NCBI GenBank assembly: GCA_008632985.1
Contig: QPGO01000104.1
Coordinates: 248,001-292,320, forward strand
Length of the DNA stretch: 44,320 bases
Direction: 5' to 3'
From: Psammoneis japonica
Lineage: Eukaryota
Shown here: piece after piece, positions 1-40,800 of the stretch
Numbering within the stretch: the first letter of the stretch is position 1
Layout: each line of letters opens with the position of its first letter
Position numbers and translations under genes: made by a program
The notes under the pieces: model-generated
The model's input: only the letters and a program-made list of their open reading frames with translations
What the model was told of the DNA's origin: nothing
Databases searched by the model: none

Positions 1-1455
1 CAGCTGCGCTCATCAATCTCAACCACAGCATCACTGACACCAATTCGTGGGGGAGGTGGAACCACAACATTTGAGAAGCGGCGTCTTTCTGATGCTCGTG
101 CGATTCAATGCTATTTGCTTTGTGGATCTCGTTTGTTTCAGCAAGCCATGCGCAATACATTAACGAATGTGCTCATTTACATGGCTCGCGATATGGAGAT
201 TTCAGTGTCGCAAAAGGGATCGTTGCTAGCGGCGATTGCCTCGGGCTATTTCTTTACACAAGTTCCAGGAGGTGCCCTGGCTGACAAGTTTGGTCCCAAA
301 AATGTGCTTGTCGGCGCCCTCTTGGCTTCTGCTCTGTGTTGTATGGCCGTACCAATCGCCGGAGACAAGTTTGGTTTGAAGGGGATTTGGCTCACAATGT
401 GTCTCATGGGCGCAGTACAAGGACCCATGTTTCCAACGTCGTCCGTCTATCTTTCAAGGTGGATGCCTACGGCTTCAGGACCAGGAGAGCCAGACGAAAA
501 AGCATGGGGAACCAGCATGTTGGATATTGGTATCTCCATAGGTTCGTTGCTGATTATTCCTATCGTGACTAGTTTGGCCGAAGCACTTGGCTGGAGAAAT
601 ACGTTCTTTTGTGTTGGCGGTGCCAGTCTTGCTTTTGTTGCCTTGTACATGTGGCTAGGAGCGGACTCACCGTCAGATTGCTGGTACATTAGTGATCGCG
701 AGCTAGAGTATCTAGAGAAACGTGTGATGAAACCTGTTTCAGCGCCATCCAAGGCCAGTGCAAAGGAAAAAGGCAGCGCAGAGGAGACTACATGGATTGG
801 AATGCCATGGAAGATGGCGAGACATCCCGGTCTCTGGGCTATATTTGTATGCCATATTGCCTTTAACTTTGGCGCTTACTATCTGACAAACTGGAGCCCG
901 ACCTACTACAAGGACATTTTAGGTCTGGAGCCTCATGAGGCAAAACTGCACCTGATGCTCCCGCACGTTACTAATCTTTTCATTCGAATGCTCAATCCAA
1001 GTTTGATTATGGCAGTGGCTCAAGCGGGTTTCAATCTACTACAGTCGCGTCGTCTCTTCACCGTCTTTGGGTATCTCGCAGCAGCGGCTTGTCTCGGACC
1101 CGTCTATGGTCTTCGAAAATTGAGTCCATGGGTGTCGACCGTGTTGTTTTCTCTTGCCAACGCATGCTTTGGTCTGGCTCCTACCGGATTTAAATCCAAT
1201 TACCTGGATATAACTCAAAAGTACGTTGGAATTGTGGCTGGCTATGGAAACACCCTGGGAACGGTTGCTTCCATTGTTGGACCAAAGATTACGGCGGCCA
1301 CATTGGTCCGGACAGAGGGAAACTGGTACGCTGTCTTGTGGACCGTGTGTGCTGTCAACATTGTGGCGGCTTTGAATTACGCCCGCAACTCTGTCGTGGA
1401 ACCGATTGAAGATCTTATCCAGCAAGAAGAAACAAACCAGGGTAAAAAGAAGTAA
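1..1455 (+). CDS. MFS transporter, SLC17/anion:cation symporter (sialin/PHT4-like); 5' end lies outside the window
   Basis: Frame is open from base 1 to TAA at 1453-1455. About 12 hydrophobic segments; motif A-like GYFFTQVPGGALADKFGPK; QGPMFP..WMP; WISDRELEY-type loop (WYISDRELEY); WSPTYYKD; YLDITQKYVGIVAGYGNTLGT typical of SLC17/ACS. Confidence 0.9.
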   Translation, partial: QLRSSISTTASLTPIRGGGGTTTFEKRRLSDARAIQCYLLCGSRLFQQAMRNTLTNVLIYMARDMEISVSQKGSLLAAIASGYFFTQVPGGALADKFGPKNVLVGALLASALCCMAVPIAGDKFGLKGIWLTMCLMGAVQGPMFPTSSVYLSRWMPTASGPGEPDEKAWGTSMLDIGISIGSLLIIPIVTSLAEALGWRNTFFCVGGASLAFVALYMWLGADSPSDCWYISDRELEYLEKRVMKPVSAPSKASAKEKGSAEETTWIGMPWKMARHPGLWAIFVCHIAFNFGAYYLTNWSPTYYKDILGLEPHEAKLHLMLPHVTNLFIRMLNPSLIMAVAQAGFNLLQSRRLFTVFGYLAAAACLGPVYGLRKLSPWVSTVLFSLANACFGLAPTGFKSNYLDITQKYVGIVAGYGNTLGTVASIVGPKITAATLVRTEGNWYAVLWTVCAVNIVAALNYARNSVVEPIEDLIQQEETNQGKKK

Positions 1456-1680
1456 TTTCTAGAGAGTAGTCGTAAGCCTTACTCTGAAAGTTTTGGATCG
1501 TTCGTTCGACTTTTCGCGTGCTCGCTCGTGCGCAAAAACATGCCGAGTGAGCGAACACCGAAATTCCAAAATGAAATTTCGAAAATTCCGTTTTTACGAT
1601 AGATTCAGTATCTAATCTACTTACGAAAGATGTTCTGTACGATTTGCCTCATTTTAATTTTTTGCCAAGTGCGGGTCACG

Positions 1681-2633
1681 ATGGGGAAACAAAAGCGAGG
1701 AGGACAAAAGAAAAGGGCGGACGTCCCGCTGGAGCGTCGGACTATTCTCGATGGACATTGCTCCATGTTGGTTCCACTCCCAATCACCAACAGTGGACTG
1801 ACGGGGGTTGGATGGATCGTGTCGGCATTACAGCCGCCGGTCTCGGGTATATCTTCGATCCTCTTAACGCAGAAGGGCCGATTGATTGTTTTTACAGCAA
1901 TGACGCCTACGCTAAAGCCGGATTCTGCACCATGTCACTCGAGCTGCGTCCGCCTCTGGAAGCTATTCGTGCAGAAAGCGCCCCGGAAAACCTTACCGAG
2001 TATCTCGAAGATTACCTGACATCAACAGAGAACCCTGCTTATTGTCGCGGTGAATACATCACCCTCGATGACGTACCGCAAGTCATTCAAGATCCATCCA
2101 GTATCGGGAGTGACGCCGATTTGATTGTACAAAAGAGCTTTGAAGTTTCCATTACTCCGGGTCCAAACATACCACGAGGTCTGACCGCCACAACGATTGC
2201 GGCGTTGATTCATTTTCAAGACAAGGGCGAGGTCTTGTTCAAGGCCAACAATTTTAAGCGTCATTCTCCTCCACTCGACTACCAACAGATTCTGAAATCC
2301 ATTTCATACACGGCTAATGATGCCTACCGTGCGTGCGAACCAACCTTCAGTTCATTTCCAGCAATGGAATTAGAGATTAGGAACAGATTTGCTGATGAAA
2401 TGCGTAGGAGAGCTGCTGCTTTTTATGAGGATGCTGCTTCAGAGGAAGAAACGCAACAAGCGGGATCTGCACGAAATCAACGAGATGCTTCTTGCCTTAA
2501 ATGTGGAGCCGACAAGACAGTCAGCGGTGGCGAGTTGCGTAGATGTGGCAACTGTAGCGCTCCGTATTGCAGTCGTGAATGTCAGGCTGCCGACTGGAAG
2601 CGACACAAAAAAGCCGAGTGTCGAAAGAAGTAG
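1681..2633 (+). CDS. C-terminal MYND zinc-finger protein; 5' structure uncertain (frame change near 1770)
   Basis: C-terminus CLKCG...LRRCGNCSAPYCSRECQAADWKRHKKAEC is a canonical zf-MYND. The most plausible ATG (1681, MGKQKRGG) is in a different frame from the long ORF 1644-2633. Confidence 0.8.
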
Positions 2634-5031
2634 ACAAAAGAGAAACTATTGGCTATCGTACGCAGCAGGGGGTCATTTTGGACGTCACTTGATGACAAGT
2701 TCAAATTAGAAAATCAGAATAGTTTATTTTATGTACTGTAGGACATATGCGCCAATGAGTGGAACAAGACCTACTAGCTTGTCCTCCCATGGGCGGATGG
2801 ATAGAATAATGAACAGAGGGACCATGATGAAGATACAAAGTGTGCGGTTGCTCGTGAAGCCTACCGACGTTACACGCCACGCCACGACGCTCGCAGAGCG
2901 GCCACCGCCGCGTAGAAATGGCATTTTGTACTGTGACGTCATCTTGCACGTAGATTCTACGGCAGTACTGAAAAGCCGCTCCTTCCTTCTTTTTTTTTGG
3001 GCCGAAATTCAGATCTGCCTCCAACAATTCTCAGTACAAAAAATACGTAAAAATTACTGAACGAAAATGGTGAGTCGCCGTTCATCGGTAAGAACGTTAC
3101 TGCTTGTGTTATTGGGTCAAAACTCGCAATGTTTCGATTGTGTCTCATCATCAACTTATATGACTATCGTTCTATCTAAAAACATTGCGACTTTTGCCAC
3201 TTGCAGAGCGAAAAAAAGACTTTTGCTGCCGCCCACTTGTTTCACACGGTGTCGCTGCTTCCGACAACTTCAGGCGACGTTCTCAAGGTTCAACATTGAA
3301 GGTGTGGCATAGGAGAACATTCATTAGTCGAAATTTATGATAGAGATGAAGGAGAAAATATCCTGACTGTTGTGGGAGGTGATGCTGAGCTGAAAACAAG
3401 AGCTCATCCACAAGTGCATCCGTCGCCTTTTCCTATCGCAACCGCCTGATCGACTCAGAATGCCAAGAAATTCACGAGGAGGGGTTGTTTAAGGAATTAG
3501 AAAGCCCCATCATGCAACAAAGGAACCAACTTTGGGCAAGGAAAGGAAACAACAGATCAATCCAAGGACATGAGGACCCGCAAGCTGGTTGACCCACAAT
3601 TCTGCGAATCTGCCACCGGAGACAATTCGCAAGGTAGGAGACGACTCCTAGTTGTAACTGGCAATTAAAAGTTCTAGCACATGCCACTTTATCATATCAC
3701 GCAGCAACAATCTATTCTCATCATTGCAGTGATGATTTCTAGCGCTTGGAGCCTTTAGGAGAGAACTGCTTGCGCTCACCAAGATCCGGATCAAACCCAC
3801 TTTGGGGCTTCAATGGCACTTATTGTGTTTGTTGACTCTTGCCATTGCTCACATTAAATGTCCTTCTATACATCAGATGCTTCCTAGACTGTTGTAAAGC
3901 TTTCAATCTGTGTTATTAACAATCTATGCATCCTTCCGTGTAAGCAAATGATGAAAATGGGTGTCCCACAGAAGGGTTCCGGCCAGCTGTCGTCATTTGC
4001 CTGTCACTGGCAGCATTTTCTACAGTCTGATCCCGATCGTAAGAATCATTGTTCACAAAAAAAGCCTCTTTCAAGTCAACATGATCAATTTAAGCCGTGC
4101 ACCGAGTCGATTTGGTTGGAGCTGGTGTGTTCAAAGGATCCGAGGTCCAACTGCTTGCGGCTCCTCAGGAACTCGCACAAAATTTTGACACCTGATAACT
4201 ATCCAGACTCGTCTCATACATCCATAGAGGGTGGCGTTTGAGCCATTGATTGAAACTTTTGGAACGATTAACGTAGACATTGAGTCGATTGATTGTCGCA
4301 AATGATTTTGACAAGCAAGGATTGCCGCGCTTGCTTTTGTTTTTGACACGGAGAACACTGCCAAAGAAAGAGCTTGTGCCTTTCTATGTCATCTTTATCG
4401 AATATATCGTCCAAGTCATGGGTAACTGCACAATGCATTCCACTTCACACCTTCAAAACATTTGCTGTCGTGTCGGATGCAGAAGAAACAAAGAAATTGA
4501 GTGAAAAGTTCAGATGACGATTAAAGGCATCACATGAAGATGCCTTGCTTTAGCACCCTTACCTTATGATCATAATGAGGTTTTAACATACTATCCAGGT
4601 GTTTCTTACACTTGGTGTTAAATATTGCCGCCGCCGCAACCGATCCCATGGTCGATTTGAGTTGTGTCGCGTGTCTGCGTTTTGGATGAAGAAACATTGA
4701 TTTTATGGGTTATGAGCGTTTTGTCGAAAATCACAGCGATGGCCGCGCGGACGTGGCCCAAAAGCGTCGTGACGCATGATCGATGCGCATGCACGCACTG
4801 CGTGAGCTCGGCCTCAGTATCGTCCTGATACAGTAATGTCGACCATGGCGCTGCATCAACTTCAGCGAAGCACAAAACGCACTCAAGACAACGATAGCGA
4901 AGCTCGCATGATATATCTAGCGGCGACCTAGAGCCGAAACATCTGTTTGTCCGACGATCAGCTTGCTTCTCCGACTCTATAGGAAGTAGAGGAGGATAGC
5001 TCGATCCAACATTCCCGAAAGCCAAAACACA

Positions 5032-5934
5032 ATGTGCAACCAGATGCGAGGTTTGTGGCTGATTTTGATATTGTTCAGGGCTGTCGTTACCACTCTACAG
5101 TTTCCACTGCCTCCCTGGAGGGGTTTCAAACAACTTACGCACATTGGACGCTCTGGTGTTGGATTGGACTTGATTCTAAGTCGATTTCGCGAGCCTCTGG
5201 TGCTTCACGTTGATTTAGCACAAAGCTCCTGTGGAGAAATCGTTCCAACAGTCAAATCAATGCGCACTCTACCATCTCCGAGTCATTCTGAAGCGGTTCG
5301 AGTAGTTCTCTTGTCAGATACACACGGGAAGCATCGATGCGTGCGATTGCCCCGCGCAGACGTGTTGATTCATTGTGGCGACGTATTGCAAAGATACGGG
5401 TACCTTGGAGATGAGGGAGCAGCATTGCGGGGACTGGAGCAATTCGATCAGTGGCTTGGTCGTCAACCAGCGAAGCATGTACTTATGATTGCTGGTAATC
5501 ATGATAAAGCCGTCCAAGGTCGATCCTGGTTTCCCGCAAACGCAACTCTGTTGAGTGGAGAAAAAATCCACGAGGTGGAAGGACTTGCTGTGTTTGGTTC
5601 TCCTTATTCGCCACCAGGAGTAACGACAAACAATGCTTTTCAGAAACCTCGATTGGGATATCGGCATGCTTCTCGTCTAGATAAGAATGTGGATATTCTT
5701 GTCACACACGCCAAGTGCCACGAATTCGAAACCGTTGCGAAAGAGCATGCCAAGGTATGGGCGCATGGCCATTTTCACAATCAGTATGGAATCGCTTATT
5801 TGACATGTCCTGGTAAAGAATCCGTTGTGTGTGCAAATGCGGCAACGTGTAACATGATTTACAGTCCAGTGAATCCGCCCATTGTGCTTGACATTGTGCC
5901 CTTATCAAAGCAGCCAAGCCCCAAAGGAGCGTAA
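5032..5934 (+). CDS. Calcineurin-like metallophosphoesterase (MPPED/239FB-like) with hydrophobic N-terminus
   Basis: All five metallophosphoesterase motifs in order: LSDTH, HCGD, IAGNHD, LVTH, GHFH; ends with NPPIVLDI typical of MPPED-like proteins. Confidence 0.9.
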   Translation: MCNQMRGLWLILILFRAVVTTLQFPLPPWRGFKQLTHIGRSGVGLDLILSRFREPLVLHVDLAQSSCGEIVPTVKSMRTLPSPSHSEAVRVVLLSDTHGKHRCVRLPRADVLIHCGDVLQRYGYLGDEGAALRGLEQFDQWLGRQPAKHVLMIAGNHDKAVQGRSWFPANATLLSGEKIHEVEGLAVFGSPYSPPGVTTNNAFQKPRLGYRHASRLDKNVDILVTHAKCHEFETVAKEHAKVWAHGHFHNQYGIAYLTCPGKESVVCANAATCNMIYSPVNPPIVLDIVPLSKQPSPKGA

Positions 5935-6618
5935 CGTCCCTTCACCTTGACGAGATCCTCATCATTCCCCGAAGAGGCCTGTCGATGACACCAAATGTTC
6001 ATTCGCATCTCATTTGAGTAGGAAAACGGCCGAGTATGGTTCGGAATTGCCGCCGTAACAATCACGTTTGTGATTCCAACAACCTGGTGTACCTCGGTTA
6101 GGATCAAGGTCGCAGTCTTCATCGTTGAAACGCAACATCTGTTGGCAGAGGCAAGAGGTGCATTATGCTACGAAAGCGGTTTAAGCGCGCATCAACCACC
6201 AGCTTGAAAACCGAAAAGTAGCAAACTCATGAATCCGGGAACTCGTTGCACCGTATTAGTATTCCATGATAGAGAACTGTATCACCGATGTGGTAACATT
6301 CCCAGTCGTCTGGAACATTTGCTTGCTTCGAGTCATCGTGAGCTCGTACGATTTGGAATCCGGCTTACTTCTTCACCCTATCTCTACGTTTTGATGACGC
6401 TGATTATCGATGTTGCAGCCATTTCTATGTATGGTGACAACGCAGTGTGCACGATAGGTGCTGTCGCTACTGCTATGAGAGGTGATTTAAGCTGAAACAA
6501 AGATTTCTATGGTGTGACCATCCCGGTATTGTAGCTAGTTTAGGGCATGAACGTTTCTCGGCGAGTACAGGACAGAAGCGGCATCTTCATCCCGTCAATA
6601 AAGCTCCCGACTGTCCTT

Positions 6619-7971
6619 CTATGGAACCGTAGCTGTTCCGATGATCCGATCGTAAACAAGGCTTATCAGATAGCAGACAAGGAAGAATACGACACTGAGC
6701 CCGAACGACTTCATCATCAATACAACTGGTGAATCTTCCTGCCGCATATCGTCTGCAGCTTCGACCTCTGAGACCGCCTCCTCGGAGGATGAATCAACGT
6801 CATCCTGCATTTCTAGTGTCGAAAGCAATGCCGCTTCGTTTTCCGCATCAAGAGCTTTCTCCGTTTCTTCGACTGGGCGAGCCATCTTGGAAGAGGTTCG
6901 CTTCTTGTGCTTTCTCTTTTTGCTTTTCTTGACTCGAGGTTGCACGCCACTGGATATCGTCACGGGATATTCTATCTCTTGCTCTGATTCAGAAGCAACA
7001 CCTTCATCCACAGGTTCTTCTCTTTCACTGCGTTTCCTTATTCGTACCTTTGACTTTTCGCCTGCAATTCTGCTCGCTTCTTGAAGATTATCAAGGTGCG
7101 ACGATGACTCAGAGTCTGATTCACTGCTTTTGCCTTCATTGTCGTAATGCAAAACGTAACGTTGCTTATCTTTATCCGTGTCGCCCAGCCCAGCATCTTC
7201 GGATTGAATCAATCCTTCCTTTTGTTCCCCGAATACGTCAGAAGCGTCGCCAACCCGTTGATCCTCCAACGCATCGAATTTCGCCTCACCTTCATCCGAA
7301 TCTTCAATGTCATTACCACTTTCACTGTTTCCACTCGATTGCTCACTTGCAGAAGAGTGTGGTATTTCTTGCGGTTGTATCTCATCGACACTGGCTGAAC
7401 CATCCCCCGTTAGCGATCGCGCTTGGTGGGCGCTTAAAGAGGTGTCCTCCAGTTCCGTCTCGTCTGACCTGTCTCCTTCTGTACTTGCATTGCGATCGTC
7501 ACTACTTGCTTCTGATATCATCTTAGCTTCCTCTTCCGCCTTTCTTACATCTTTCTTGACGGCCTTTTCCTCCATGACAGCTTGCTTCTTTTTCTTTTGG
7601 GCGACACCACGTTTCTTGCGTAAACGAGCATTTCGTACCTTTTGAATGAGTATGTTACGCCTTAGCTGTTCTAATTCTCCAAAAGTATCCTCTTGAATGT
7701 CTCTTCTAACTTTGTTAACTTGTTCTGAAAAATCTTCCATGAACCATTCCTCATCGACTCCATGGCGATCTGTTTCTCCACCACGAGGGACAAGTACCTT
7801 TTCTAAGAAAGTTGGTGTAACTAGTCGTTGTCTTGTAGCGAGCGCCGAGTAGCACTTATTGGAAGCATCATTCCCACTTCCATAAGTACTCTGAACAGTT
7901 GCAAAACAACCTGCCATGGCCAGGCCACGACAACCTTTTGGAAAGCATAACGATGTATCGCTCATGCTCAT
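6619..7971 (-). CDS. Acidic, low-complexity coiled-coil protein with C-terminal transmembrane anchor, function unknown
   Basis: Uninterrupted ORF of about 450 codons (first ATG at 7971, MSMSD). Contains VPRGG, a coiled-coil and basic stretch, long D/E/S-rich tracts and a terminal hydrophobic helix FGLSVVFFLVCYLISLVY. Confidence 0.7.
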   Translation of the reverse strand: MSMSDTSLCFPKGCRGLAMAGCFATVQSTYGSGNDASNKCYSALATRQRLVTPTFLEKVLVPRGGETDRHGVDEEWFMEDFSEQVNKVRRDIQEDTFGELEQLRRNILIQKVRNARLRKKRGVAQKKKKQAVMEEKAVKKDVRKAEEEAKMISEASSDDRNASTEGDRSDETELEDTSLSAHQARSLTGDGSASVDEIQPQEIPHSSASEQSSGNSESGNDIEDSDEGEAKFDALEDQRVGDASDVFGEQKEGLIQSEDAGLGDTDKDKQRYVLHYDNEGKSSESDSESSSHLDNLQEASRIAGEKSKVRIRKRSEREEPVDEGVASESEQEIEYPVTISSGVQPRVKKSKKRKHKKRTSSKMARPVEETEKALDAENEAALLSTLEMQDDVDSSSEEAVSEVEAADDMRQEDSPVVLMMKSFGLSVVFFLVCYLISLVYDRIIGTATVP

Positions 7972-9091
7972 GGTTAGCGCAACGGCGTGTTGTTGCGGTG
8001 TGTGTTTTGTGTTGCGTTTGTCACCGTTATCATTTTTGTACGTATGAATGCATTGATGGCAGATACGGCAGCATGTACCGGTACAGTAAAACAATAAACG
8101 TCACACCGTCTGTCTGTCCTTCCTTCCCAGTTTGTGCACCTGCCTTGGGGCGGCATTTGATTTGACTCTCGGGCCACATTCAGTCACTCCAACGTGACAA
8201 GGAAACCCCAGCAACCTGCACTGCACCCCTGTGGGGAAAGGGAAATGGACCAATCTTCAGAAATGTCATGGAGGAACTTCCCCACAAGTCTGTCTCGTTT
8301 CATGCCACCACACATGACCCCTTGGTTGTGAGATCTGCCAGACTGCATTCTTCCGAACGAGTGTGTCCAGCGAGCAAGTGTCAAGACAAATGCTGCCATT
8401 GCAGTCTTTGGGGCAATCATCAGTGGAGTCAATGGCATCAACAGACTTGTCTTGGGCAACATGGGGCTGTGAAGGTGATGCAATTGGGGGGGCCTGTTCC
8501 AGCTCCAGGTGATCCGCATGGGTTCGATTCCCACCATTTGGCAATTTGTGCATTTGGTGCATTGAGCTTTTTCAAAATCCATTTTTTGCCAAAAAGAAGG
8601 GCAAGTGTGCACTTTACATGTGTTTTCAGGTGTGCACTTGCCTTTCGATTTTTGAAACGATCAAAATTGAAGGAGTTCAATGTGCCAAAATCGGCCTCTT
8701 GCGTGATGAAAAGCGGATCACCCAGAGCTGGAACAGGCCTTGGACACACAGTTGCAAGGAAAAATTTCCATGGAGGCTGTGCAAGGCCACGCAAATTCCC
8801 CAGTGTTGACTCCAGAAAAAAAAAAAAAAGTGAGCAAAAATTGATGTGGTGAAATTGCCGCAAAATGATCACAAGAAAGAGACAAAGTGTTTTTGACGTG
8901 ACTTGGTTCGCTCAACACACAGCATGTGCTCATGATCTCACCGCTGTTCACACTGCCACCAAAATGTGTCATGCCCTCAAACAACATGAACATTGGAAAT
9001 GTTGCTGAGTGCAAATGAAGAAAGAGTCAAAGTCTGGACACAAAAAAACAGCACCACAATGTTGGTGGGCAACAACCAGATGAAGGACAAG

Positions 9092-9929: not shown

Positions 9930-10665
9930 AACGAGTCTCAAGGTGCAAGCCTTTGGGGATCGGATTGGAGCAAGACATCTTGTGGTGCAAGGCTGCAGAT
10001 GTCTGATTGGGGCAACCAGTCCCGTGCTGCAAGACTTCTGGGATCCACCAAAAGGACTTGCCATTCTTGTGACACGAGTCTTCGGGGATCCAATCAGGAG
10101 GCCAAGTCTTGAGGTGCAAGACTTGGGGGATCCAATCAGGAGGCCGAGTCTTGTGGTGCAAGACTTGAGGGATCCAATCTGGAGGCTGAGTCTTGAGGTA
10201 CGAGACGTGGAGGATCCAATTGGGAGGCCCGGTCTCGAGGCACGAGACATGGAGAGTCCAGTTGGGAGGCCTGGTCTCAAGGCACGAGACTTGGGGCATC
10301 CGATCAGGAGGCCCAGTCTCGATGTGTGAGACTTGAGGCATCCGATCAGGAGGCCCAGTCTCGAGGTGCGAGACTTGGGGGATCCAACCAGGAGGCCCAG
10401 TCTCGAGGCACGAGACTTGAGGCATCCAATCAGGAGGCCCAGTCTCGTGGTGCGATGCTTGGAGGATCTGAAGACAACGAAGCTGCTTGGATGTCCTGAA
10501 CTCCAGTCAGGAGGCCTGGTCTCAAGGTGCGAGACTTGGGGCATCCAGTCAGGAGGCCTGGTCTCAAGGTGCGAGACTTGGGGCATCCAATCAGGAGGCC
10601 TCGTCTCATGGTGCGATGCTTGGAGGATCCGAAGACAACGAAGCTGCTTGGATTTCCTGAACTCC
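9930..10665. repeat. 42-bp tandem repeat (about 15 units) inside the Copia element, with a duplicated ~55-bp interruption
   Basis: GATCCAATCAGGAGGCC recurs every 42 bp (e.g. 10087, 10129); minus-strand reading repeats 14 aa (CLETGPPDWIPQVS). GGTGCGATGCTTGGAGGATC...GAACTCC occurs at about 10449 and 10610. Confidence 0.9.
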
Positions 10666-10761
10666 CCATCTGATGAACCGGTTGAACTGTTGTGAACAGA
10701 TTCAATGACGGGAAAAGGAGGCTCCCCATCAGGAGATGCGAGAAGCAAGTTGTCATCTCCA

Positions 10762-15393: not shown

Positions 15394-16144
15394 GTTTCTT
15401 TGCCAACCACATCATGTGGACCTTTGTTCCCTGATGACTCAAGTGTGACCACAACCAACATTGGCGAGTTCAGCAACTGCTTTCTCATTGTGCTTGGGCC
15501 CAAAGGTGCAAATCATGACCCGGTTGTGTCTGAGGTTGAAAGGGAAATTCACCTTCTCCAATCTGGGCAGGTGCCACCCATTTTTGTTGGCAGCGCTGGC
15601 AAATCAAGGAAACCCATCACAGACGTCTGGTTGTGATCTGGAGACCAGCCAGAAAAACAAGCAATCACTGGAATGAAACTTGGCATGAAAACCAACCATG
15701 CATTGTTCGGCCATGTGTTGAACATCAAGAAAGTTGGTTGTTGTCTTGCGTCTTGCGTCTTGCACTCACTGTCGCAAACGCATTGAAGAACCCTCATCAA
15801 TGGCTTTCAAACAATTGCAAACTTGACATGTTCATTTGGATTGTGTGCCAACCAGTCTGTTGATGCTTCCAGTCCATTGCTGCACACCCCCCCTCCTGCC
15901 AACTTTCCACTCAGCAAACTTGGCGGCAAATCGTTCTCCCTCCTTTCAAATGGAATCAAACAGCAACTGTGCAGTCATTGGTTTTGCACGGGAATCATGT
16001 GGAATGTACGAGCTGAATGGTCATTGTGACTTTTTGTCATGCAGAAGCCACGTGAAATCACAGCACACCATTTCACTGGTGGTGCATGAATGATGACCGA
16101 AAAAACCAGTCACGCGACACACTTGCCGTGTCATGAGAATCAGC

Positions 16145-16329
16145 TGAATGAGACAGGCACATGTGCTCTGTGTCCAAGTGTGCCCTCTCTGACACATGTG
16201 TGTCAACTGATGCACTGGACATTCAAGAAGCCGTTGGGAGTCAGTTCCAATCAGCGATTGTGCTGATCAGGTCTCTTCTCGGTTCTCTCACAACCTGTTT
16301 TATCAAGTCATCCCAAGCTGGATCTTGCA
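16145..16329 (+). repeat. 5' LTR of gypsy element
   Basis: Aligns without gaps to 21948-22132; ends GATCTTGCA. Confidence 0.92.
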
Positions 16330-16634
16330 CTGCAATTGCAGTCATTGTCACAGCTTGCTTGTTGCATCATCTGTTTCATGACAATGTGTGGAGTGCTGTC
16401 GAAAAGAGAGAAAGCTTGTTTGCGTGCTTGTGCAGAAAATTTCATTAGAAATCAATTGGAGCCTCAGCGCAATCATGCTGGTGAAATTGGCGATTCAGAG
16501 CAGCGTTTGTTTGAACTTGAAGCTCGTGTCACTGCGCTTGAATTTGTCATTGTTTGGTTGTTGATTGTTCTCATTGTGTGGATCAATTGGGAATGCATTG
16601 TTTCATTTGCTGTGTGGATTGTTGATTCTTTGAT

Positions 16635-17855
16635 CGCTGAAATTGTTCATCATCATGTGTCAAGAAGCCTTGAAGAAAGCGTGCATTGAGTGTAAAACCA
16701 CATTCTTGGACTCGGAATTGCCTGAAGTGAAACTCACTCAAACTTTCGACAGTGGAACTAAACTGTCAGAGATGTGTCCCATTTTTACAGGAGAACATAG
16801 AATTGAGTCATTGTTGCATGTGGAGGACCGTTTCTGGAAGGCAGCAAGACAGTTGGATCATGACACCGGAACAGAACTCTTCGATGCTTTTGAGGATTGC
16901 TTGCAAGGCACTGCGGAGGCAAAATGGCAGAACATCATGGCAGGCATTCCACAGAATCAAAGGATGCAGCTCGGTTCAATCAGCCATCACAGATTGCTGC
17001 CAGTGCTGTGTGAAGCCGACAGCTTGTGATGCGATGAAGATGCACTTGCCTGCTTGCAAGAAACCTTGCTCCGTGGAATCTGCAACACATGTTGATCGCG
17101 TGGAAACTTCATTTCGCTGTGCCAACCATTTGCCTGGAACCGTCCCTGAACTCACAGAGCAGGAACAGAAAAACATTGTCTTCTGCACCTTTCCTTTGAC
17201 ATGGCAGCAGCCCCACATTCGTGCGGGCAAGAATCTTGTTGCAGATTCAAAGGCGGACATTCAAGCCTGCATGAGCAATGAGAAGGTGTTTGCCGATTGT
17301 CAAGATGACAAGAGATGCAAGTCCAATGATGGCAATGGAGGGAACTCCAGCAACAAAAAGGGCAACCATGACAAGAAGGATGCTGAGGGTCAACCCCAGG
17401 CTGGTGATCCGTGTCCGGTCCCATGGCACAATGGAAGACATGCATGGGGCCAGTGTTGTGATGATCCAAATGACCCCAATTGTCGTGGACCTCACTTCCA
17501 AGGAGGCCATGGTCCTGGCCGTGGTGGAGGTGGATGCTTTGGCGGTTGTGGTGACCAAAACCAAGGAGGTCGCAGCACCTGTTGTGACAATTGCAACAAC
17601 AATGACAATGGGAATCAAAATGACAATGGCAACCAAGGTGGTGGTGGTCAACATTGTTGCAATGACAACAACAATCGTGGTGGCCAAGGTCAGGCCTGCT
17701 GCTGTGCTGCTCAAGCAGACAACATGAATTTCAGCCAGGCTCGAGAAGCTCCTCGTGGTGAGATGCACCATTTCAATGTGATTGGACAAGGTCCTCCACG
17801 TTCCGGAGGTGTGGTGAGGTTTCAGCCAGATGGGCAGTTTCCTTGGCAGTTCTGA
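16635..17855 (+). pseudogene. Gypsy gag (frameshifted near 16975)
   Basis: Two overlapping ORFs (16643-17029, 16752-17855) with ELFDAFEDCLQGTAEAKW, LTEQEQKNIVF..FP..WQ, a knuckle-like CPVPWHNGRHAWGQC and a G/N-rich tail; lies between the LTR and the protease. Confidence 0.8.
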
Positions 17856-17879
17856 GAAGAAGGAGCTGAATGCTCCCAA

Positions 17880-20800
17880 TTGCCTGCATGTGAAGCATTT
17901 GTTGAAGATGATTGTGCTGTGCCTGAAAATTTGCCTGAAAGTTTTGCCTTTGATTGTTTTGAAAATCCCAACGAACTGTTGCCTGTCAAATTTGAAGACA
18001 CTGCAGAAAATTGCATGAATGAAGAGGGGGACGTGTTTGATCAAGATGCATTTGAGCACAATGTTCCTCTCCCCAAAATGGGTTTGCAAGTCTCGCGTGC
18101 CATGTTGGTCCCATCAACTCTGTCAGTTGCCAAATTGACCCAACGGCATGAGTCGAATCGCATGATGCATGTGCCATTTGATTCTGGTGGATCTCACACT
18201 GTGATCTCTTCTCAAGTTTTGCCTCATGGAGCTGCGCCATCCATTGATGGGCAAGGAGCACAAGCTTTCCAAACCATTGCAGGTCCTTTCCAGTCGGGTC
18301 ATTGGGTGGCTCTAAGTGACATTGCACTGCCCGAATTCAACAAGACCAGAAGAGTTGACGGTTGTGTGGCTCATGTGTTTGATGCTCCGTGTGCGCATGA
18401 TGTCATTTTGGGTCAAGATTTCCCAGACAAAATTGGACTCCATTTGAACCATGACACAAGAACGCTGCGTTGGTTGGACCGCATCATTCCAATGAAGGAG
18501 CCTCATCATTGGTCCAAGTCCTGCAACTGGTGTGTTGCACTGGACCAAATGGATGAATTCGATGAAGATTGCAAGGACGAATGGAGCTGCGGATGTGACG
18601 ATGGACATGATGGCCACATGTTGGATGCCAAGCATGAAGCAACAGATCCTGCGGAAGTGGTCCGCAACCTGGATCACCTGATGGAAGAACAAAAGAAGAA
18701 ACTGTTGGCGGTGTTGGAAAAATGCTCAACCTTGTTTGACGGAACTTTGGGTCACTGTCCTCATGAAAAGGTGCACCTGGAGGTGGAAGAAAATGCTGTG
18801 CCCTGTCACTCAAAACCTTTTCCTGTTGCTCGTGTCAACGAGGAAGACGCGTTCAGGTCCAGGTGGGACCTTGCGCTGCTGAACTGTGACATCAACAGTT
18901 TTTTGAATCACGTCGTATGTTGCGCACGTAGATTTCTACGTGATTTTTTCGATGTTTTGTGTCATTTTACGGTGCACTCATTGAGCAATCCGTCCAACAA
19001 CTTTTGACATTTTTTGTTGCAGTGCAATTCTGTGGTGTCCTAAGAATCGTGCAGGGCAGGCGCATTTGCAAAAGCATCAAGTGGCAAGAGGCACAATTTC
19101 ACCACAAACTTGGCCGTTTGTTTGATGTTGAAGACAAACACATCCATTGGTTAAATTCTTGCACTGCGGAGCTCGCATGCAGAATTCTGTGGGCCCAATG
19201 TCACACGGAGTTCCACCTGGGACTGGAACCCATTGGAAGCATTTAAAAAGGAACTGAAGCATTTGGTGGACCTGGGAGTGTTGCGACCATGTGGACCTGC
19301 GGAATGGGCAGCTGGTGCCTTCATTGCTCCAAAGAAGGACGGCCAAGTGCATTGGGCATCTGATTTCCGTGAACTGAATGAGGCACTCAAGCAAAAAAGT
19401 CCACCCTTTTCCGGTTGTCCAAGATGCACTGCAGCGGAGAGCGGGGCACAAGTTCTTCACCAAACTCAACCTTGCTGTGTTCTGCTGCAACTTGGAATTG
19501 GACGATGAAAGCAAGGAGCTGGCAACAATTGCAACCCCGCACGGAAAGTTCCAATGCTGTCGCATGGCCATGGGATTGAAGCCAGCTCCAGATGTTGCTC
19601 AGTCTGTCATTGAAAAGATTTTGCATGGTTTGGACGTTGAAACTTGTGTTGATGACATTGGCGCCTTTGACGCTGACTTTGGCTGCCATCTCTCTCATCT
19701 TGACAAAGTGTTGCATCATCTGGAAGAGAATGGATTGAAGGTGAACCCATTGAAATGCAAGTGGTGTGTCCAAGAGATGGATTTCTGGGGCATTGGCTCA
19801 CTCCAACTGGTGTCAAACCATGGAAGAAAAAGGTCAAAGCGATTCTGCGAATGCAACCTCCACGGAACACCACGCAACTTCGCTCCTTTTTGGGTGCAGT
19901 GACCTGTTGTCGCAACATGTGGCCTCGTCGTTCTCACTTGCTTGCGCCTTCAATGGAATTGACAGGCAAAAGCCAGCTCCATTGGTCAGCGGCATGTCAG
20001 AAAGCATTTGAAGAAATGAAGGCAGTGATCACAGCGGAAGCTCTCCTGGCCCATCCAACCACAACCTGCTGTCCATGTGTGTGCCGATGCATCAGACTGT
20101 CAGATGGGTGCAGCCATTGTCCAAGATGGCAAACCTGTGGCGCACTGGTCCAAGAAGCTCTCAGCAGCTCAATGCAACTGTTCAACGATGGAAAAAGAAC
20201 TCCTGGTGGTCATCATGTGCTTCAAAGAATTTTGCACGATGTTGCTCGGTGCTGACATTGCTGTTCATGCTGACCATGAAATCTCACCTTTGCACTTTGA
20301 ATGCACAGCGCGTCCTTCGTTGGCATCCATTCCTTGAAGATTTCGTGCCCACCTTTGAACACATTGAAGGCAAGAACAACATGCTGGCCAATTGTTTTTC
20401 TCGACTCCCACGCATGGATCCACCTTCGGAGGGGAAGAGCCTTGGGCCAAGCAGCAAATGCAAAGGAAAAATCATTCATTTTGAAAAGTTGGGCAGCAGT
20501 GAATTGAGCAAGGCTGAGGAAGAAGAAGATTTGGAGTTGGGCACTTGCAGGTTCAAGTTTTGCCATGCTCCTGTCAATCCTTCTGATGAGTCTCATGCTT
20601 TGTCTTCTCTGCTTGATGAACCTGAATTGTTTGAATGCTCTTTGGACTGTCCGACATTGGACGAGATGCCAAATCCCACCGAGATGTTGCGGACACAACA
20701 GCTCCAGTTTGAGGACCAGCAACTGATCAACAGAGACAACAGAACCCACAGCAATTCGTGGTCAAGATTGTGAACCAGCGTCCTCTCATGTGTTGTCGTT

Positions 20801-21830
20801 TGCATTTGAATGATCTGCCTGGAGCATGGAAAATTTGCACTCCGACTGCATTGTTGCCTGATGTGCTCATGTGGTGTCATCGTGTGTTGGGCCATTGTGG
20901 AGTTGTTTGTTTCTACGAGAGCATTCGCACTCACATGCATCACCCTGCATTGCTTGGCATTGTAATGAGCTTGCATGCGACGCCTGTCAACATTTCAAAC
21001 AACTCGGTCCAGGACATGGAGAATTGCCTGAACGCCAAGCACCATCAGCTCCGTGGTCGGAAGCAGCAGTTGACCTTGTTGGACCGTGGAAAATGCCGAT
21101 TCAAGATCAAGAAATTGAACTCAGCACCCATGCTTGCATTGATGCTGTTGCTGGCCTGACTGAACTCACACATGTTGACAACAAAACTTCTCAACATGTT
21201 GCCAACAAGTTCCGCAACCTTTGGTTGGCTCGTTGTCCCAGACCAAATCGATGTGTCCATGACAACGGCAGTGAATTCATTGGTTGGGAATTTCAAATGC
21301 CATTGAACCAGGCTGGTGTTGAAGATGCTCCGACGACCTCATGGAATCCCACAGCCAACTCGATTTGTGAATGAATGCACCAAACGGCAGCTGACATTTT
21401 GCGAACTGTGGTTGCTGCCAACCCACCTTTGAACATTCAACAGGCCAAGCAGATGGTGGATGATGCCCTTGCTGCAGCCTCCTTTGCATTGCAATGCTCT
21501 CACTCAAGGTCCATGGGTGTGTCCAGTGGAGCGTTGGCATTCCAACAAGACATGATTTTGGATCCACCTGTTCTCTCCGATCTTGCTGCTGTTTGAGCCA
21601 ACCGTCAAGTGCTTGTCAACAAAAACCTGCAACGACAAAACGCAAAATGCCATTCTTGTGATTGTTCAGTGGGACAAGATGTGTCAATCAAGTCCGTGGA
21701 TCCAGCGAAGCCAGAAGCTAGAGCTCATGGTCTGTTTCGAATTGTGCAAGTCCATGCCAATGGGACAGTTTCGGCACTGTGAGCACCACACATCATTGAG
21801 CGGATTGATGTTTGTTGCGTGGTGCCGCGC
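17880..21830 (+). pseudogene. Gypsy pol (protease-RT-RNase H-integrase), frameshifted and interrupted by an insertion
   Basis: FDSGGSHT, DVILGQDF, FIAPKKDGQVHWASDFRELN, RMAMGLKPAPD, CVDD (YxDD position), [56 protein letters not shown]. Confidence 0.95.
18847..19234. mobile_element. 388-bp MITE-like insertion in gypsy pol
   Basis: Flanked by direct repeat GGAAG (18842-18846, 19235-19239). Imperfect TIRs: GTTCAGGTCCAGGTGGGAC versus the reverse complement of the right end, GTTCCAGTCCCAGGTGGAAC. Removal restores PFPVARVNEEAFKKELKHL. Confidence 0.9.
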
Positions 21831-21947
21831 CGGAGTTGAGGGTTTCTTCCCAACGTCTGGGTTCCCTTCTCCATGTGCATTGGAGTTTAAATTTGAGTCA
21901 AGTGGTTCCAATGGTGCACATGATTCTTGCACCATTGAGGGGAAGAG

Positions 21948-22132
21948 CAAATGAGATGGGCACATGTGCTCTGTGTCCGAGTGTGCCCTCTCTGATGCGT
22001 GCATGTCAACCAACACATGAGATGTTCAAGAAGCAGTTAGAAGTTAGCTCCGATCAGTGACTGTGCTGATCGGGTCTCTTCTCAGTTCTCTCACAACCTG
22101 TTTTGTCAAGTCATCCCAAGCCAGATCTTGCA
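21948..22132 (+). repeat. 3' LTR of gypsy element
   Basis: Follows the PPT; matches 16145-16329. Confidence 0.92.
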
Positions 22133-23249
22133 TCAGTGAGCAATTGACATGGTGACCGGAGCCGTGGCTGATTCCGGAATGAGAACACGGCAACCGTGGT
22201 GATTCTAGAAATCACCATGGTTGAAGTTTGCCAGCACAAAACATGCACAGGAATTGTGTTGGGCGGAGCCAAGAGTGACGATTGCGGTTGGCACCGGCAG
22301 CACCGCATTGTCTCGAGTGCAAACCAATGATGCCGATTCAGCAGGCAACCGGCTGAGTGTGACAACAACATGTGCTGGAGTGCAATGGAAGAGACATCTC
22401 TCCCATGACAGCTTGCAGCTGCACAGTCATTGAAGAGACAGACCAACATTTAACAGAACACTCACTTGCATTTAAAATCACATTTGCACACACAAGTTCA
22501 CACCATTTGCATTTCTGTTGAACAAGAAAATAAATTCCCTTGACAAAAACAATTCCTGCACTGTTGCTGTTTGATTCCTTGCGCAATCCGCACTTGCCGG
22601 CTCAATGGAGTCATCTCTCCCACACTCGCACACTCACCTCAGGTCGTTTGATTTCTCGTCTCGTGTTGACTGCATCTCCAAAAGCCTTGAAATCAAACTC
22701 CCCTCGGTTCATGTTGGACTCGTGCTTGTTCTCAATTCCTCACGGAATCACACGAAATCCAGCATGATTTCCGTGTGATTCTATGGCTCCAACTTCGCAC
22801 TGAAAGACCCCATCATAAAAACACATGCAAAATGAATGTTCAAGATAAATTTTCTGCTGACTGAAAAATCGGCTTCATTCTCTCCGTCATTTCACTCATC
22901 AATCAACCCGAAACAATGCAACAACAAGCAGCAGATGATGAGCAAAGAGCACAATTGCCGAGAGACTAAAATGCCACCGCAGTCACACTGTGGCAACAAG
23001 GCAAGTGCAGGCAGAAGAAGATCACACATTCTTCAGTGCTGCAAATTGAATGTCAGTGGACACAAGAGGACAAAATTTTGTGAGAGAACTTGTTTGCATT
23101 GACGCCAATCCTGCTGCTGACACTCCTTCTTTTTAACTCCTCGCATTGTTTCAGGAGAACAGTTTTTAACAGAGCTGCAGCTTCCTGGTTGGAGCCCTTG
23201 GGTGTGAAACTTAAGATCAACTCTGAACTCAAACACTTTTTTTTGTGAA

Positions 23250-32975: not shown

Positions 32976-33470
32976 AATTTGGCACCCTTGGTCATTTTGC
33001 TTTTGTGGTTTTGCAAAACTTGGCCATTTTGTGCCCTTTGTGATTTTGCGCCCTTTGTGATTTTGCACCCTTTGCTGCCACTTTGCACCCTTTGTGATTT
33101 TGCACCTTTTTGTGAATTCACCCCTTGGCCATTTTGCGCCCGCTGTGATTTTGCACCCTTTGCTGCCACTTTGCGCCCTTTGTGATTTTGCTCCCTTTGA
33201 GATTTTGCGCCCTTCGCCATTTTGCACCCTTTGCCGACATTTTGCACCCCACATGATTTTGCACCCTTTGCCGACATTTTGCACCCTTTGTGATTTTGCA
33301 CCCTTGGCCATTTTGTGCCCTTGGTCATTTTGTGCCCTTTGTGATTTTGCGCACTTGGCCATTTTGTGCCCTTTGTGATTTTGCACCTTTGTGATTTTGC
33401 ACCCTTGGCCATTTTGTGCCCTTTGTGATTTTGCACCCTTTGCCGCCATTTTGCGCCCTTTGTGATTTTG
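32976..33470. repeat. 17-bp minisatellite array (TTTTGYRCCC plus TTTGTGA or TTGGCCA)
   Basis: Alternating TTTTGCACCCTTTGTGA and TTTTGTGCCCTTGGCCA-type units, with some 20-bp TTTGCCGCCA variants. Confidence 0.95.
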
Positions 33471-34199
33471 AATGAATGCTGATGTGCTGTCATGAATGCA
33501 GGCAGTTTGTGTGCTGTTGGCAATTGGCCCACTTTTGCTCATTCAGTGACCCCGGTGGCACAACATCTCACAATTCTAGAACCTGTTGATGCTGTTCAAC
33601 ACTCTGTCTTGTCTCACACCCAATTCTTGGCCATCATGGCAGCATTTGTTCACTTCATCAGAGCCAACATGCCATGATGTTCATTGCCTGGAACGGGCAT
33701 CGCAAACGGCACGACGGTGTTGTTGCGATCGATCAATTTTTGCGGCAAGCGCCATGTTGGTCCCATGGTTGCTCGTGCAATCGCTGAGTCCTTTTTGTGT
33801 GTGTCAACATTCATGGACATGAATGACATGCTCTTGGAGACCAGAGCTGTGATCCGCTAGACATGACGTCAGTGGACGGAATGTTTGATCACATGGATGG
33901 AACATGTTGGCCAAGACACGCAAACATTCGTGATGAAGACAACACAATGACTCATGCGCTGAGGTCTGTTTTTGACTGCGTGCATTTGACCAATCAAAAC
34001 ACGTTGTCAAACTCTTTAGACACTGCACATGTGGACACATGTCTGTCGCCAATCATCACTTGGGAGCAACACCGCCTGATTGTGGGTTCGCCAAGCAGAA
34101 ACCGCCAAATCGGCACAAGAACCACACATTTCTCCCACTTTTCTCCGCTCACATGAGTGGATGCTCACGCGTCAAAATGCAAGTGACCATTGATGCACC

Positions 34200-39550: not shown

Positions 39551-39944
39551 CTCGGTGGTTGGTGATGTTTTGGTCCCTGTTTGTGAAATTTACGGTGTTT
39601 GCTCTGTTTCAGATCCCTCCTCACTTTGGAACGTTCCAACATGGCTTGCTTCAGTGGAATGATCAGATCCAGTCAGAAGCAAAGAGCCACTCCATTGCTG
39701 TGGTTTCAAGTGCTTTGAAGGTGCCAAATCAATTTGCTGTTGCTGTCTGTGACGCCACTCCCAACTGTTCCCGGCGGGTGTCATCATTTGTTGGCAATGC
39801 CCATCTTGGCCAATCGCAATGCATTCCTGCTGCACACATGTGTGCTGGGGGTGTGGGTCAGCTTGTTGCTGGAGCTGCAGGGCGGAAGCGCAGCAGCACT
39901 TCAAACACAGAATTTTGGTTTTGTTTTTGTGCCAACTCACCCAA

Positions 39945-40800
39945 GCCCTTGGCCATTTTGTGCCATTTGAGATTCTGCTCCCTTTCTGATTTTGCGGCTT
40001 TGGCCATTTTGTGCCCTTTGTGATTTTGCACCCTTTGCCACCATTTTGCGCCCTTTGTGATTTTGCAGCTTTGGCCATTTTGCACCCTTTGTGATTTTGC
40101 ACCCTTTGCCCCCATTTTGCGCCCTTTGTGATTTTGTGGCTTTGGCCATTTTGTGCCCTTTGTGATTTTGCACCCTTTGCCGCCATTTTGCAGCTTTGGC
40201 CATTTTGTGCCCTTTGTGATTTTGCGCCCTGAGGCATCTCAAGCCCTTGGTCATTTTGCGCCCTTTGTGATTTTGAGCCCTTGGCCATTTTGCGCCCTTT
40301 GTGATTTTGCACCCTTTGCCGCCATTTTGCACCCTTTGTGATTTTGAGCCCTTGGCCATTTTGTGCCCTTTGTGATTGTGAGCTCTTGGCCATTTTGCGC
40401 CCTTTGTGATTTTGTGCCCTTTGTGGTTTTGCGCCCTTTGCTGCCATTTTGCACCCTTGGCCATTTCATGCCCTTTGAAGCATTGAGCACTTGGCCATTT
40501 TGCACCCTTTGTGGCATTGAGTCCTTGGCCATTTTGTGCCCTTTGTGATTTTGCACCCTTTTCCGCCATTTTGCACCCTTTGTGATTTTGCGCCCTTTGT
40601 GACTTTGCACCCTTTGCCACCATTTTGCACCCTTTGTGATTTTGAGCCCTTTGGCCATTTTTCCACCCTTTGTGGTTTTGCACCCTTTGCCGCCATTTTG
40701 GCCCTTTGTGATTTTGAGCCCTTGGCCATCTTGCACCCTTGGTCATTTTGCACCCTTTGTAATTTTGCGCCCTTTGTCGCGCCATTTTGAGCCCTTTCGC
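39945..40800. repeat. 17-bp minisatellite array, same family as 32976-33470
   Basis: About 850 bp of TTTTGYRCCC/TTTTGAGCCC plus TTTGTGA, TTGGCCA or TTTGCCGCCA units. Confidence 0.95.

Follow-up and report, generated by a model that had tools for sequence, protein, structure and literature searches.

Reciprocal TG/CA swaps between the long terminal repeats of a dead Ty3/gypsy retrotransposon in Psammoneis japonica point to decay of TpA and CpG after insertion

The stretch of DNA analyzed here (the window) covers 44,320 nucleotides of Psammoneis japonica (assembly GCA_008632985.1, contig QPGO01000104.1, positions 248,001 to 292,320). At positions 16145–22132 it contains a Ty3/gypsy retrotransposon, whose internal region is bounded by two direct long terminal repeats (LTRs) which are 82.7% identical and align without gaps. 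This copy is dead: its reading frames are shifted and broken by stop codons, and another element is nested within it. The two LTRs differ by a set of reciprocal swaps, in which one LTR reads TG where the other reads CA. The likely explanation is that the element decayed after insertion through two strand-symmetric transition processes, loss of TpA and loss of CpG, which together yielded the swaps.

The alignment of the LTRs (offset 5803) covered 185 positions. Differences were found at 32 of them, corresponding to 30 transitions and 2 transversions (16216 T/G and 16232 C/A), and when coded as purines and pyrimidines the two LTRs were 98.9% identical. Among the 44 aligned pyrimidine-purine dinucleotides, eight were TG/CA swaps (16145, 16154, 16193, 16199, 16208, 16211, 16220 and 16319). 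Six opposed CG to TG or CA, three opposed TA to TG or CA, 15 were TG in both LTRs and 12 were CA in both, with not a single CG/CG or TA/TA site. Seven differences (5 transitions and the 2 transversions) lay outside pyrimidine-purine sites. When 30 transitions and 2 transversions were placed randomly on the 5′ LTR, the mean number of swaps was 1.07 and the maximum 7, and at least eight were obtained in none of 200,000 trials. The original prediction, made from the letters alone, had counted about eight reciprocal swaps in about 185 bp, which proved to be exactly eight in 185 nt, above chance. The swaps that it quoted were all in place (LTR start, 16154, 16208, 16211 and 16319), as were its TA/TG and TA/CA pairs (16235, 16242 and 16301). 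The orientation of the swaps was balanced, the 5′ LTR showing TG at five sites and CA at three (binomial p = 0.73).

The 5′ LTR (16145–16329, forward strand, 185 nt) starts with TG and ends with CA, and holds 1 TA, 3 CG, 22 TG and 20 CA. The 3′ LTR (21948–22132, forward strand, 185 nt) starts and ends with CA, and holds 2 TA, 4 CG, 21 TG and 19 CA. The first dinucleotide is therefore itself a swap and, because LTRs canonically start with TG, it probably arose from that state in two steps. On either side of the element lies a copy of the target-site duplication, TCAGC at 16140–16144 and TCAGT at 22133–22137, the two matching at four of five bases. The C/T mismatch at the last base would fit CpG to TpG decay after insertion, because only the last base of the 3′ copy precedes a G. 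Contigs from a public sequencing run of the same organism were aligned to the element, and 5060 of them were at least 80% alike. Three contigs revealed the empty site: in them 16144 is followed immediately by 22138, so that 5993 nt are missing (the element and one copy of the duplication), and their junction matches exactly the borders 16145–22132 originally proposed. The duplication and the empty-site contigs show that the two LTRs belong to one insertion. The flanks (16000–16144 and 22138–22300) are present elsewhere without the insertion, which points either to a repetitive flank or to a heterozygous insertion.

Reverse transcription generates the two LTRs of an element from a single RNA template. 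Given one insertion and a template common to both LTRs, it is in the integrated DNA that they came to differ, as the original prediction held. Its argument against editing by ADAR or reverse-transcriptase error also stands, since changes made before integration would be common to both LTRs. Mutation on both strands, another of its claims, is visible in the presence of TG and CA outcomes in each LTR (5:3) and in the fate of conserved pol tyrosines, changed to cysteine in 11 cases (A>G on the sense strand) and to histidine in 8 (T>C). The Kimura two-parameter distance between the LTRs was 0.210 over all sites, 0.077 outside the pyrimidine-purine dinucleotides (97 positions) and 0.011 for transversions alone. 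Dating by LTR divergence would thus overestimate the age of the insertion, as had been anticipated, the distance of 0.210 being inflated about 2.7-fold relative to 0.077.

Inside the element the same two dinucleotides were worn down. Only 20 TA were present in 5988 nt, six of them in the nested insert, giving an observed to expected ratio (o/e) of 0.05. The o/e was 0.48 for CpG, 1.75 for TpG and 1.66 for CpA. The decay of pol was scored over 527 columns conserved in its homologues. The 25 conserved tyrosine columns now encode Cys (11), His (8), Phe (3), Tyr (1), Trp (1) and Pro (1). Other conserved residues had hardly changed: all 13 Trp columns, 32 of the 33 Gly columns and 13 of the 14 Cys columns were retained. 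The catalytic YVDD motif has become CVDD at position 19645, where a tyrosine column conserved in 19 of 19 homologues is now TGT. The spectrum of changes was drawn from the 109 pol changes with a unique single-base path, including 17 transversions. In this set, 32 of 35 A>G changes follow a T and 19 of 25 T>C changes precede an A, which places 51 of the 60 inferred A:T to G:C transitions on TpA. Similarly, 21 of 25 G>A changes follow a C and all seven C>T changes precede a G, placing 28 of 32 on CpG. Biased gene conversion toward GC was considered as a cause of the A:T to G:C changes and dropped, as only 9 of the 60 lay outside TpA. Among the 38 conserved arginine columns, 12 are CGN, 3 are AGR and 20 are His, Gln, Cys or stop codons one transition away from CGN. 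TpA was lost from 19 of 20 Tyr codons (95%; 95% interval 0.75–1.0) compared to a loss of CpG from 20 of 32 Arg CGN codons (63%; 0.44–0.79). Both dinucleotides have decayed in the element, and the loss of TpA is the more complete.

The LTR pair cannot by itself separate an ancestral TA from an ancestral CG, because TG and CA are each one transition away from both. A four-state Markov model was therefore tied to the loss fractions observed inside the element (Tyr 19/20 and Arg 20/32), and in this form the absence of any ancestral TA was rejected (2ΔlnL = 8.11, p = 0.0044). The model apportioned the origin of the swaps as 75% TA, 19% CG and 6% two steps from TG or CA. The eight swaps are probably a mixture, with about five or six derived from TA and about two from CG. 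The original proposal that the swaps came from opposite-strand hits on an ancestral TA or CG is supported for most sites by this apportionment, and has to be extended by the two-step route within a single lineage, starting from TG or CA, which would account for the 6%. The model takes TA and CG to be lost as fast in the LTRs as in the interior, and gives all CpGs a single rate.

Other copies of the family provided a second view of the ancestral states. The family-copy states refer to 40 variant rows out of a total of 1785, and a single one of the 40 (16313) falls in an LTR. In 11 of these rows the family shows TA where the element has TG or CA, and in seven it shows CG; the element keeps CG in three rows and TA in none. 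When a share of at least 30% of the copies was demanded, 6 TA and 6 CG rows were found, with CG shares (0.65–1.0) above TA shares (0.30–0.58), as expected if TA is lost faster. One contig of 1148 nt, about 89% alike over 16448–17579, has TA at several places where the element has TG or CA, which shows that the sample also contains family members that have decayed less. For the LTRs, two loose-end fragments of other copies cover only the CG/X sites 16268 and 16280 (X being TG or CA), the fragment at 16280 reading CG, and a between-joint fragment over 16211–16221 shows only TG or CA states. No match to transition-tolerant IUPAC patterns of two LTR stretches was obtained in metagenome_contigs, genome_contigs or viral_contigs. 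A purine/pyrimidine-coded scan found no third LTR copy in the window, the best other match being 66%.

The excess of swaps extended to three of the four other long repeat pairs of the window. For each repeat pair, the number of swaps predicted from CpG decay was derived from the pair's own surviving CG/CG and CG/X counts, taking one rate for all CpGs. The pair 13836–15397/27701–29292 showed 29 swaps for 6.5 predicted (P = 8e-11), the pair 25833–27201/29293–30623 showed 29 for 15.0 (P = 9e-4), and the pair 9092–9369/12349–12626 showed 7 for 1.1 (P = 1e-4). Only 2 of 130 other sites differed in the latter pair, and its seven swaps therefore accumulated fast. These repeats and the retrotransposon lie in a domain of 36 kb (8100–44320) which is nearly devoid of TA and poor in CG. 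Per 2 kb, the o/e in this domain was 0.00–0.12 for TpA, 0.30–0.57 for CpG and 1.4–2.0 for TpG and CpA, compared to 0.50–0.62 for TpA and 0.93–1.09 for CpG in positions 1–8000. Taken over whole segments, the o/e of TpA was 0.57 in positions 1–8000 and 0.04–0.06 from 8201 onward, with a value of about 0.05 domain-wide. The edge of the domain, near 8100 (8000–8200), was sharp: the number of TA per 100 bp dropped from 8 to 0 in one 100-bp step.

We propose that two processes would act on the integrated DNA. The first would convert TpA into TpG or CpA (A:T to G:C), and the second would convert CpG into TpG or CpA (C:G to T:A). As TpA and CpG are self-complementary, the product would depend on which strand was struck. 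A TG in one LTR facing a CA in the other would result wherever an ancestral TA or CG shared by both had mutated on the top strand in one copy and on the bottom strand in the other. The CpG part may correspond to deamination of 5-methylcytosine on silenced repeats. The TpA part may correspond to a locally targeted hypermutation of the kind described in Bigelowiella natans, its candidate chemistries being deamination of adenine in DNA or a modification of thymine that leads to mispairing. A 2-bp inversion, TG being the reverse complement of CA, was also considered as a one-step origin of the swaps. We know of no such process, and this idea was dropped as CG/X and TA/X intermediates are present.

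Several observations weigh against the participation of TpA loss in the LTRs and favor a rival reading, decay of methylated CpG alone, in which all eight swap sites were CpG at insertion and the loss of TA either took place before insertion or concerned an LTR that had none. Taken alone, the LTR counts fit such a model as well as the mixed model (−lnL of 47.88 and 47.68, respectively; 2ΔlnL of 0.41 for the inclusion of ancestral TA), and the ancestral state of the swap sites was obtained through the model, not by a direct reading of the sites. The six CG/X sites testify to CpG decay under way in the LTRs, and the three TA/X sites are near the number expected from background transitions (0.6–1.6 in models without TA). 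With CpG only, the best-fitting loss fraction is 0.88, which barely exceeds the upper bound of the internal 95% interval, and the internal fractions may themselves include decay that predates the insertion. Uneven CpG methylation, or heavier methylation of the LTRs, would raise the CpG-derived share and shrink the excess. In the family copies, some of the TA rows have a low share (0.06–0.26) and may be derived, and at 16998–16999 the copies show both TA and CG, so that some of the TAs may be derived states. The repeat pair 37187–38365/41718–42901 showed no excess, its 5 swaps (6.5 predicted) being fully accounted for by CpG decay, as if this pair had been duplicated after TA was already gone. 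Diatom repeats are CpG-methylated according to the available part of one report (PMC5124317).

Nevertheless CpG decay alone appears unlikely. Its best fit demands 21–22 ancestral CpGs among the 44 sites of the 185-nt LTR, an o/e near 1.9 compared to 0.93–1.09 in the unmutated part of the window, together with an ancestral LTR without any TA. It further needs its loss fraction of 0.88 to hold in an element whose interior gives 20/32, and it is this model that was rejected once tied to the internal rates. At the internal rate, 41 of the 44 sites would have to be CpG, with 19 CG/X and 6 CG/CG sites predicted where 6 and 0 were observed. In addition, a coding-competent copy needs TAY codons, and 19 of 20 were later lost, which would place the loss of TA after the last coding-competent ancestor. 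An origin before integration, by A-to-I editing of the element RNA by an ADAR-type enzyme or by reverse-transcriptase error, is extremely improbable. TpA is close to the 5′-neighbor preference of ADAR enzymes, and A>G at TpA is somewhat more common than T>C on the sense strand (32 and 19, p = 0.09). On the other hand, T>C is frequent on that strand (19 changes at TpA, and eight Tyr to His changes), the shared template would give both LTRs the same changes, and the TA-free state spans 36 kb of neighboring repeats which are not retroelements, up to the sharp edge near 8100.

It is also conceivable that the LTRs are not sisters, the element being a recombinant or one LTR having been gene-converted, so that their divergence would reflect family diversity. 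The 5060 similar contigs testify to an abundant family that could offer exchange partners, and one contig jumps from 16210 to 22025, as a solo LTR or a recombinant copy would. We consider this very improbable given the exact match of the outer borders with the empty-site contigs, the presence of just 2 transversions in 185 nt, and a target-site duplication matching at four of five bases with a mismatch that fits CpG decay; the differences would in any case still represent decay at the DNA level, in two copies. Modified DNA causes systematic base-calling errors on some platforms, and modified bases in repeats could have been misread as TG or CA. Nothing in this analysis favored such an assembly or base-calling artifact, which has hardly any probability in our opinion. 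A miscall of this kind would affect both LTRs alike rather than leave TG in one and CA in the other, and the element has frameshifts, stop codons and a nested insertion as well. The contigs of the public run contain 59% of the sampled 31-letter words exactly, although this run is possibly the assembly's own sample and would then not be independent, and 524 of the 5060 aligned contigs are at least 99% alike.

The pol region of the retrotransposon could be aligned by tblastn with 19 homologous proteins, the best being P0118 (1197 aa), which is collinear with the element from 17955 to 21833 across several frame changes. One of the reverse-transcriptase homologues is named from the diatom Cylindrotheca closterium. 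In P0118, Pfam domains occupy residues 123–207, 371–526, 589–710 and 866–1035, in the order protease, reverse transcriptase, RNase H, integrase, the integrase region comprising Integrase_H2C2 (866–919) and rve (948–1035). This order leads to the assignment to Ty3/gypsy. The following parts are all on the forward strand. An open frame in the gag position (16731–17855, 374 aa from stop to stop) is a putative gag by position only, and a Pfam search of this frame returned no family. The protease part of the degenerate pol (17955–18845) was delimited by tblastn of residues 62–340 of P0118, and gave a weak match to Asp_protease_2 (E = 0.00025, below the curated cut-off). The reverse transcriptase and RNase H part (19236–20952), found by tblastn, is spread over several frames and matches RVT_1 with an E-value of 1e-11, the only direct Pfam match on the element that is not weak. 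The integrase part (20913–21833) corresponds to residues 893–1196 of P0118 and shows a weak match to rve (E = 0.00011). The polypurine tract GAGGGGAAGAG (21937–21947) adjoins the 3′ LTR. In the region 16000–22300, 36 stop-to-stop frames of at least 80 aa were present in 6.3 kb over all six frames, because TAA and TAG stops are nearly gone.

A separate element, about 380 bp long and present in very many copies, interrupts the pol region at 18854–19232 and has retained TA and CG. The alignment with P0118 is contiguous at residue 340 across 18845/19236, the interruption measuring approximately 380–390 bp (18846–19235). Contig word depth in this insertion was 75,000–126,000, compared to 1,350–3,950 elsewhere in the Gypsy element, a difference of 30–60 times. 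Loose contig ends were present at 18854 and at 19231/19233, and the insertion has imperfect inverted arms (18854–18869/19210–19225). With 6 TA, a TA o/e of 0.22 and a CG o/e of 0.80 (18846–19235), it has mutated far less than the retrotransposon around it, and may be younger or escape the process.

The first 8 kb of the window contain ordinary frames, encoding an MFS transporter, a zf-MYND protein and a metallophosphoesterase (Metallophos). Among named relatives, the best match to the MFS frame comes from the diatom Ditylum brightwellii, with 66% identity, and unnamed matches reach 85%. The frame at 6619–8100 had no usable match in a protein atlas search. In the rest of the TA-free domain, a Pfam search with 33 long frames returned no family. 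Tandem arrays were observed in this domain at 32977–33471 and 39924–40797, two related arrays with a period of 17 nt and its multiples, and at 9934–10667 (42 nt).

TpA-specific hypermutation is already known from one 2026 preprint on the chlorarachniophyte Bigelowiella natans. According to the part of this preprint that was accessible, 231 mutations were recorded in two integrated viral regions, of which 230 were A>G or T>C and affected TpA without exception, and Mettrop et al., on the basis of mutation-accumulation lines, propose deamination of adenine in DNA as a defense (10.64898/2026.01.13.699255). As in the retrotransposon described here, TpA is converted into TpG and CpA on either strand, and the accessible text describes the process as confined to foreign or integrated DNA, with clusters of the genome poor in TpA and rich in CpA and TpG, and with reverse-transcriptase and DDE domains enriched among the TpA-depleted coding sequences (10.64898/2026.01.13.699255). 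The locality is also shared, since in our window the gene-bearing positions 1–8000 keep a TpA o/e of 0.57 compared to 0.04–0.06 in the repeat domain. The two cases differ in several respects. Diatoms are not mentioned in the accessible text of the preprint (10.64898/2026.01.13.699255), nor is CpG, whereas the loss of TpA here is combined with CpG decay. The depletion reported there is mild (Rho TpA of 0.45 in a giant-virus region), compared to an o/e of about 0.05 over 36 kb here. In the preprint, mutation was measured in accumulation lines; in our case it is deduced from sequence. A search of full-text literature retrieved no report of TpA erasure in diatoms and, elsewhere, only the Bigelowiella preprint, whose supplementary tables were not covered by the search. 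What is new is the logic of the LTR pair, applied to an older element in which the reciprocal swaps probably stem from superimposed losses of TpA and CpG.

Like the process described here, the repeat-induced point mutation (RIP) known from Neurospora and other fungi is a transition hypermutation of repeats which spares neighboring genes and leaves a dinucleotide signature. However, the changes made by RIP are C:G to T:A and lead to an excess of TpA, whereas here TpA is erased (o/e of 0.05) and the dominant changes outside CpG are A:T to G:C. Relatives of the fungal DNMT4/RID enzymes exist in many diatoms according to the available part of a survey (PMC9998398). The methyl-CpG decay of silenced transposons also resembles our case in converting CpG into TpG or CpA on either strand, and the available parts of two reports describe heavy CpG methylation of repeats in other diatoms (PMC5124317, PMC9998398). 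By our model, it would account for the six CG/X sites, for an estimated 1.5–3 swaps and for the element's CpG o/e (0.48); the removal of TpA and the changes of Tyr to Cys or His go beyond it. Context-specific transitions fixed in copies of retroelements are in addition reminiscent of APOBEC (C-to-U on cDNA) and ADAR (A-to-I on RNA). Such editing acts in the replication cycle, marks one strand and is common to both LTRs. Here the LTRs differ, both strands were hit, and neighboring repeats that are not retroelements share the signature.

It is possible that diatoms possess a DNA mutator, directed at repeats after integration and acting on both strands, which converts TpA into TpG or CpA and saturates faster than methyl-CpG decay. 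This system would be the same as in the rhizarian Bigelowiella, and would thus be an old genome defense of the SAR (stramenopile, alveolate and rhizarian) supergroup relying on a putative enzyme, perhaps a DNA adenine deaminase. We see the arguments for and against this broader hypothesis as evenly balanced.

The LTR pair offers both a built-in clock and a control: identical at integration, its present differences were written afterwards in DNA. The erasure of TA and CG in these repeats would therefore take place in DNA once it has been inserted, and affect both strands, and RNA editing and reverse-transcriptase error are ruled out as the source of the LTR differences. This narrows the search for a mechanism to enzymes or base modifications acting on double-stranded, self-complementary TpA and CpG. 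In practice, LTR-divergence dating overstates ages in such genomes, and gene finders would be misled in such TA-free domains. Transition-heavy decay also hides old repeats from ordinary similarity searches, and purine/pyrimidine coding recovers them, as it did for the two LTRs. With these results, a signature known from one chlorarachniophyte preprint is recognized in a diatom-like genome and in LTR retrotransposons.

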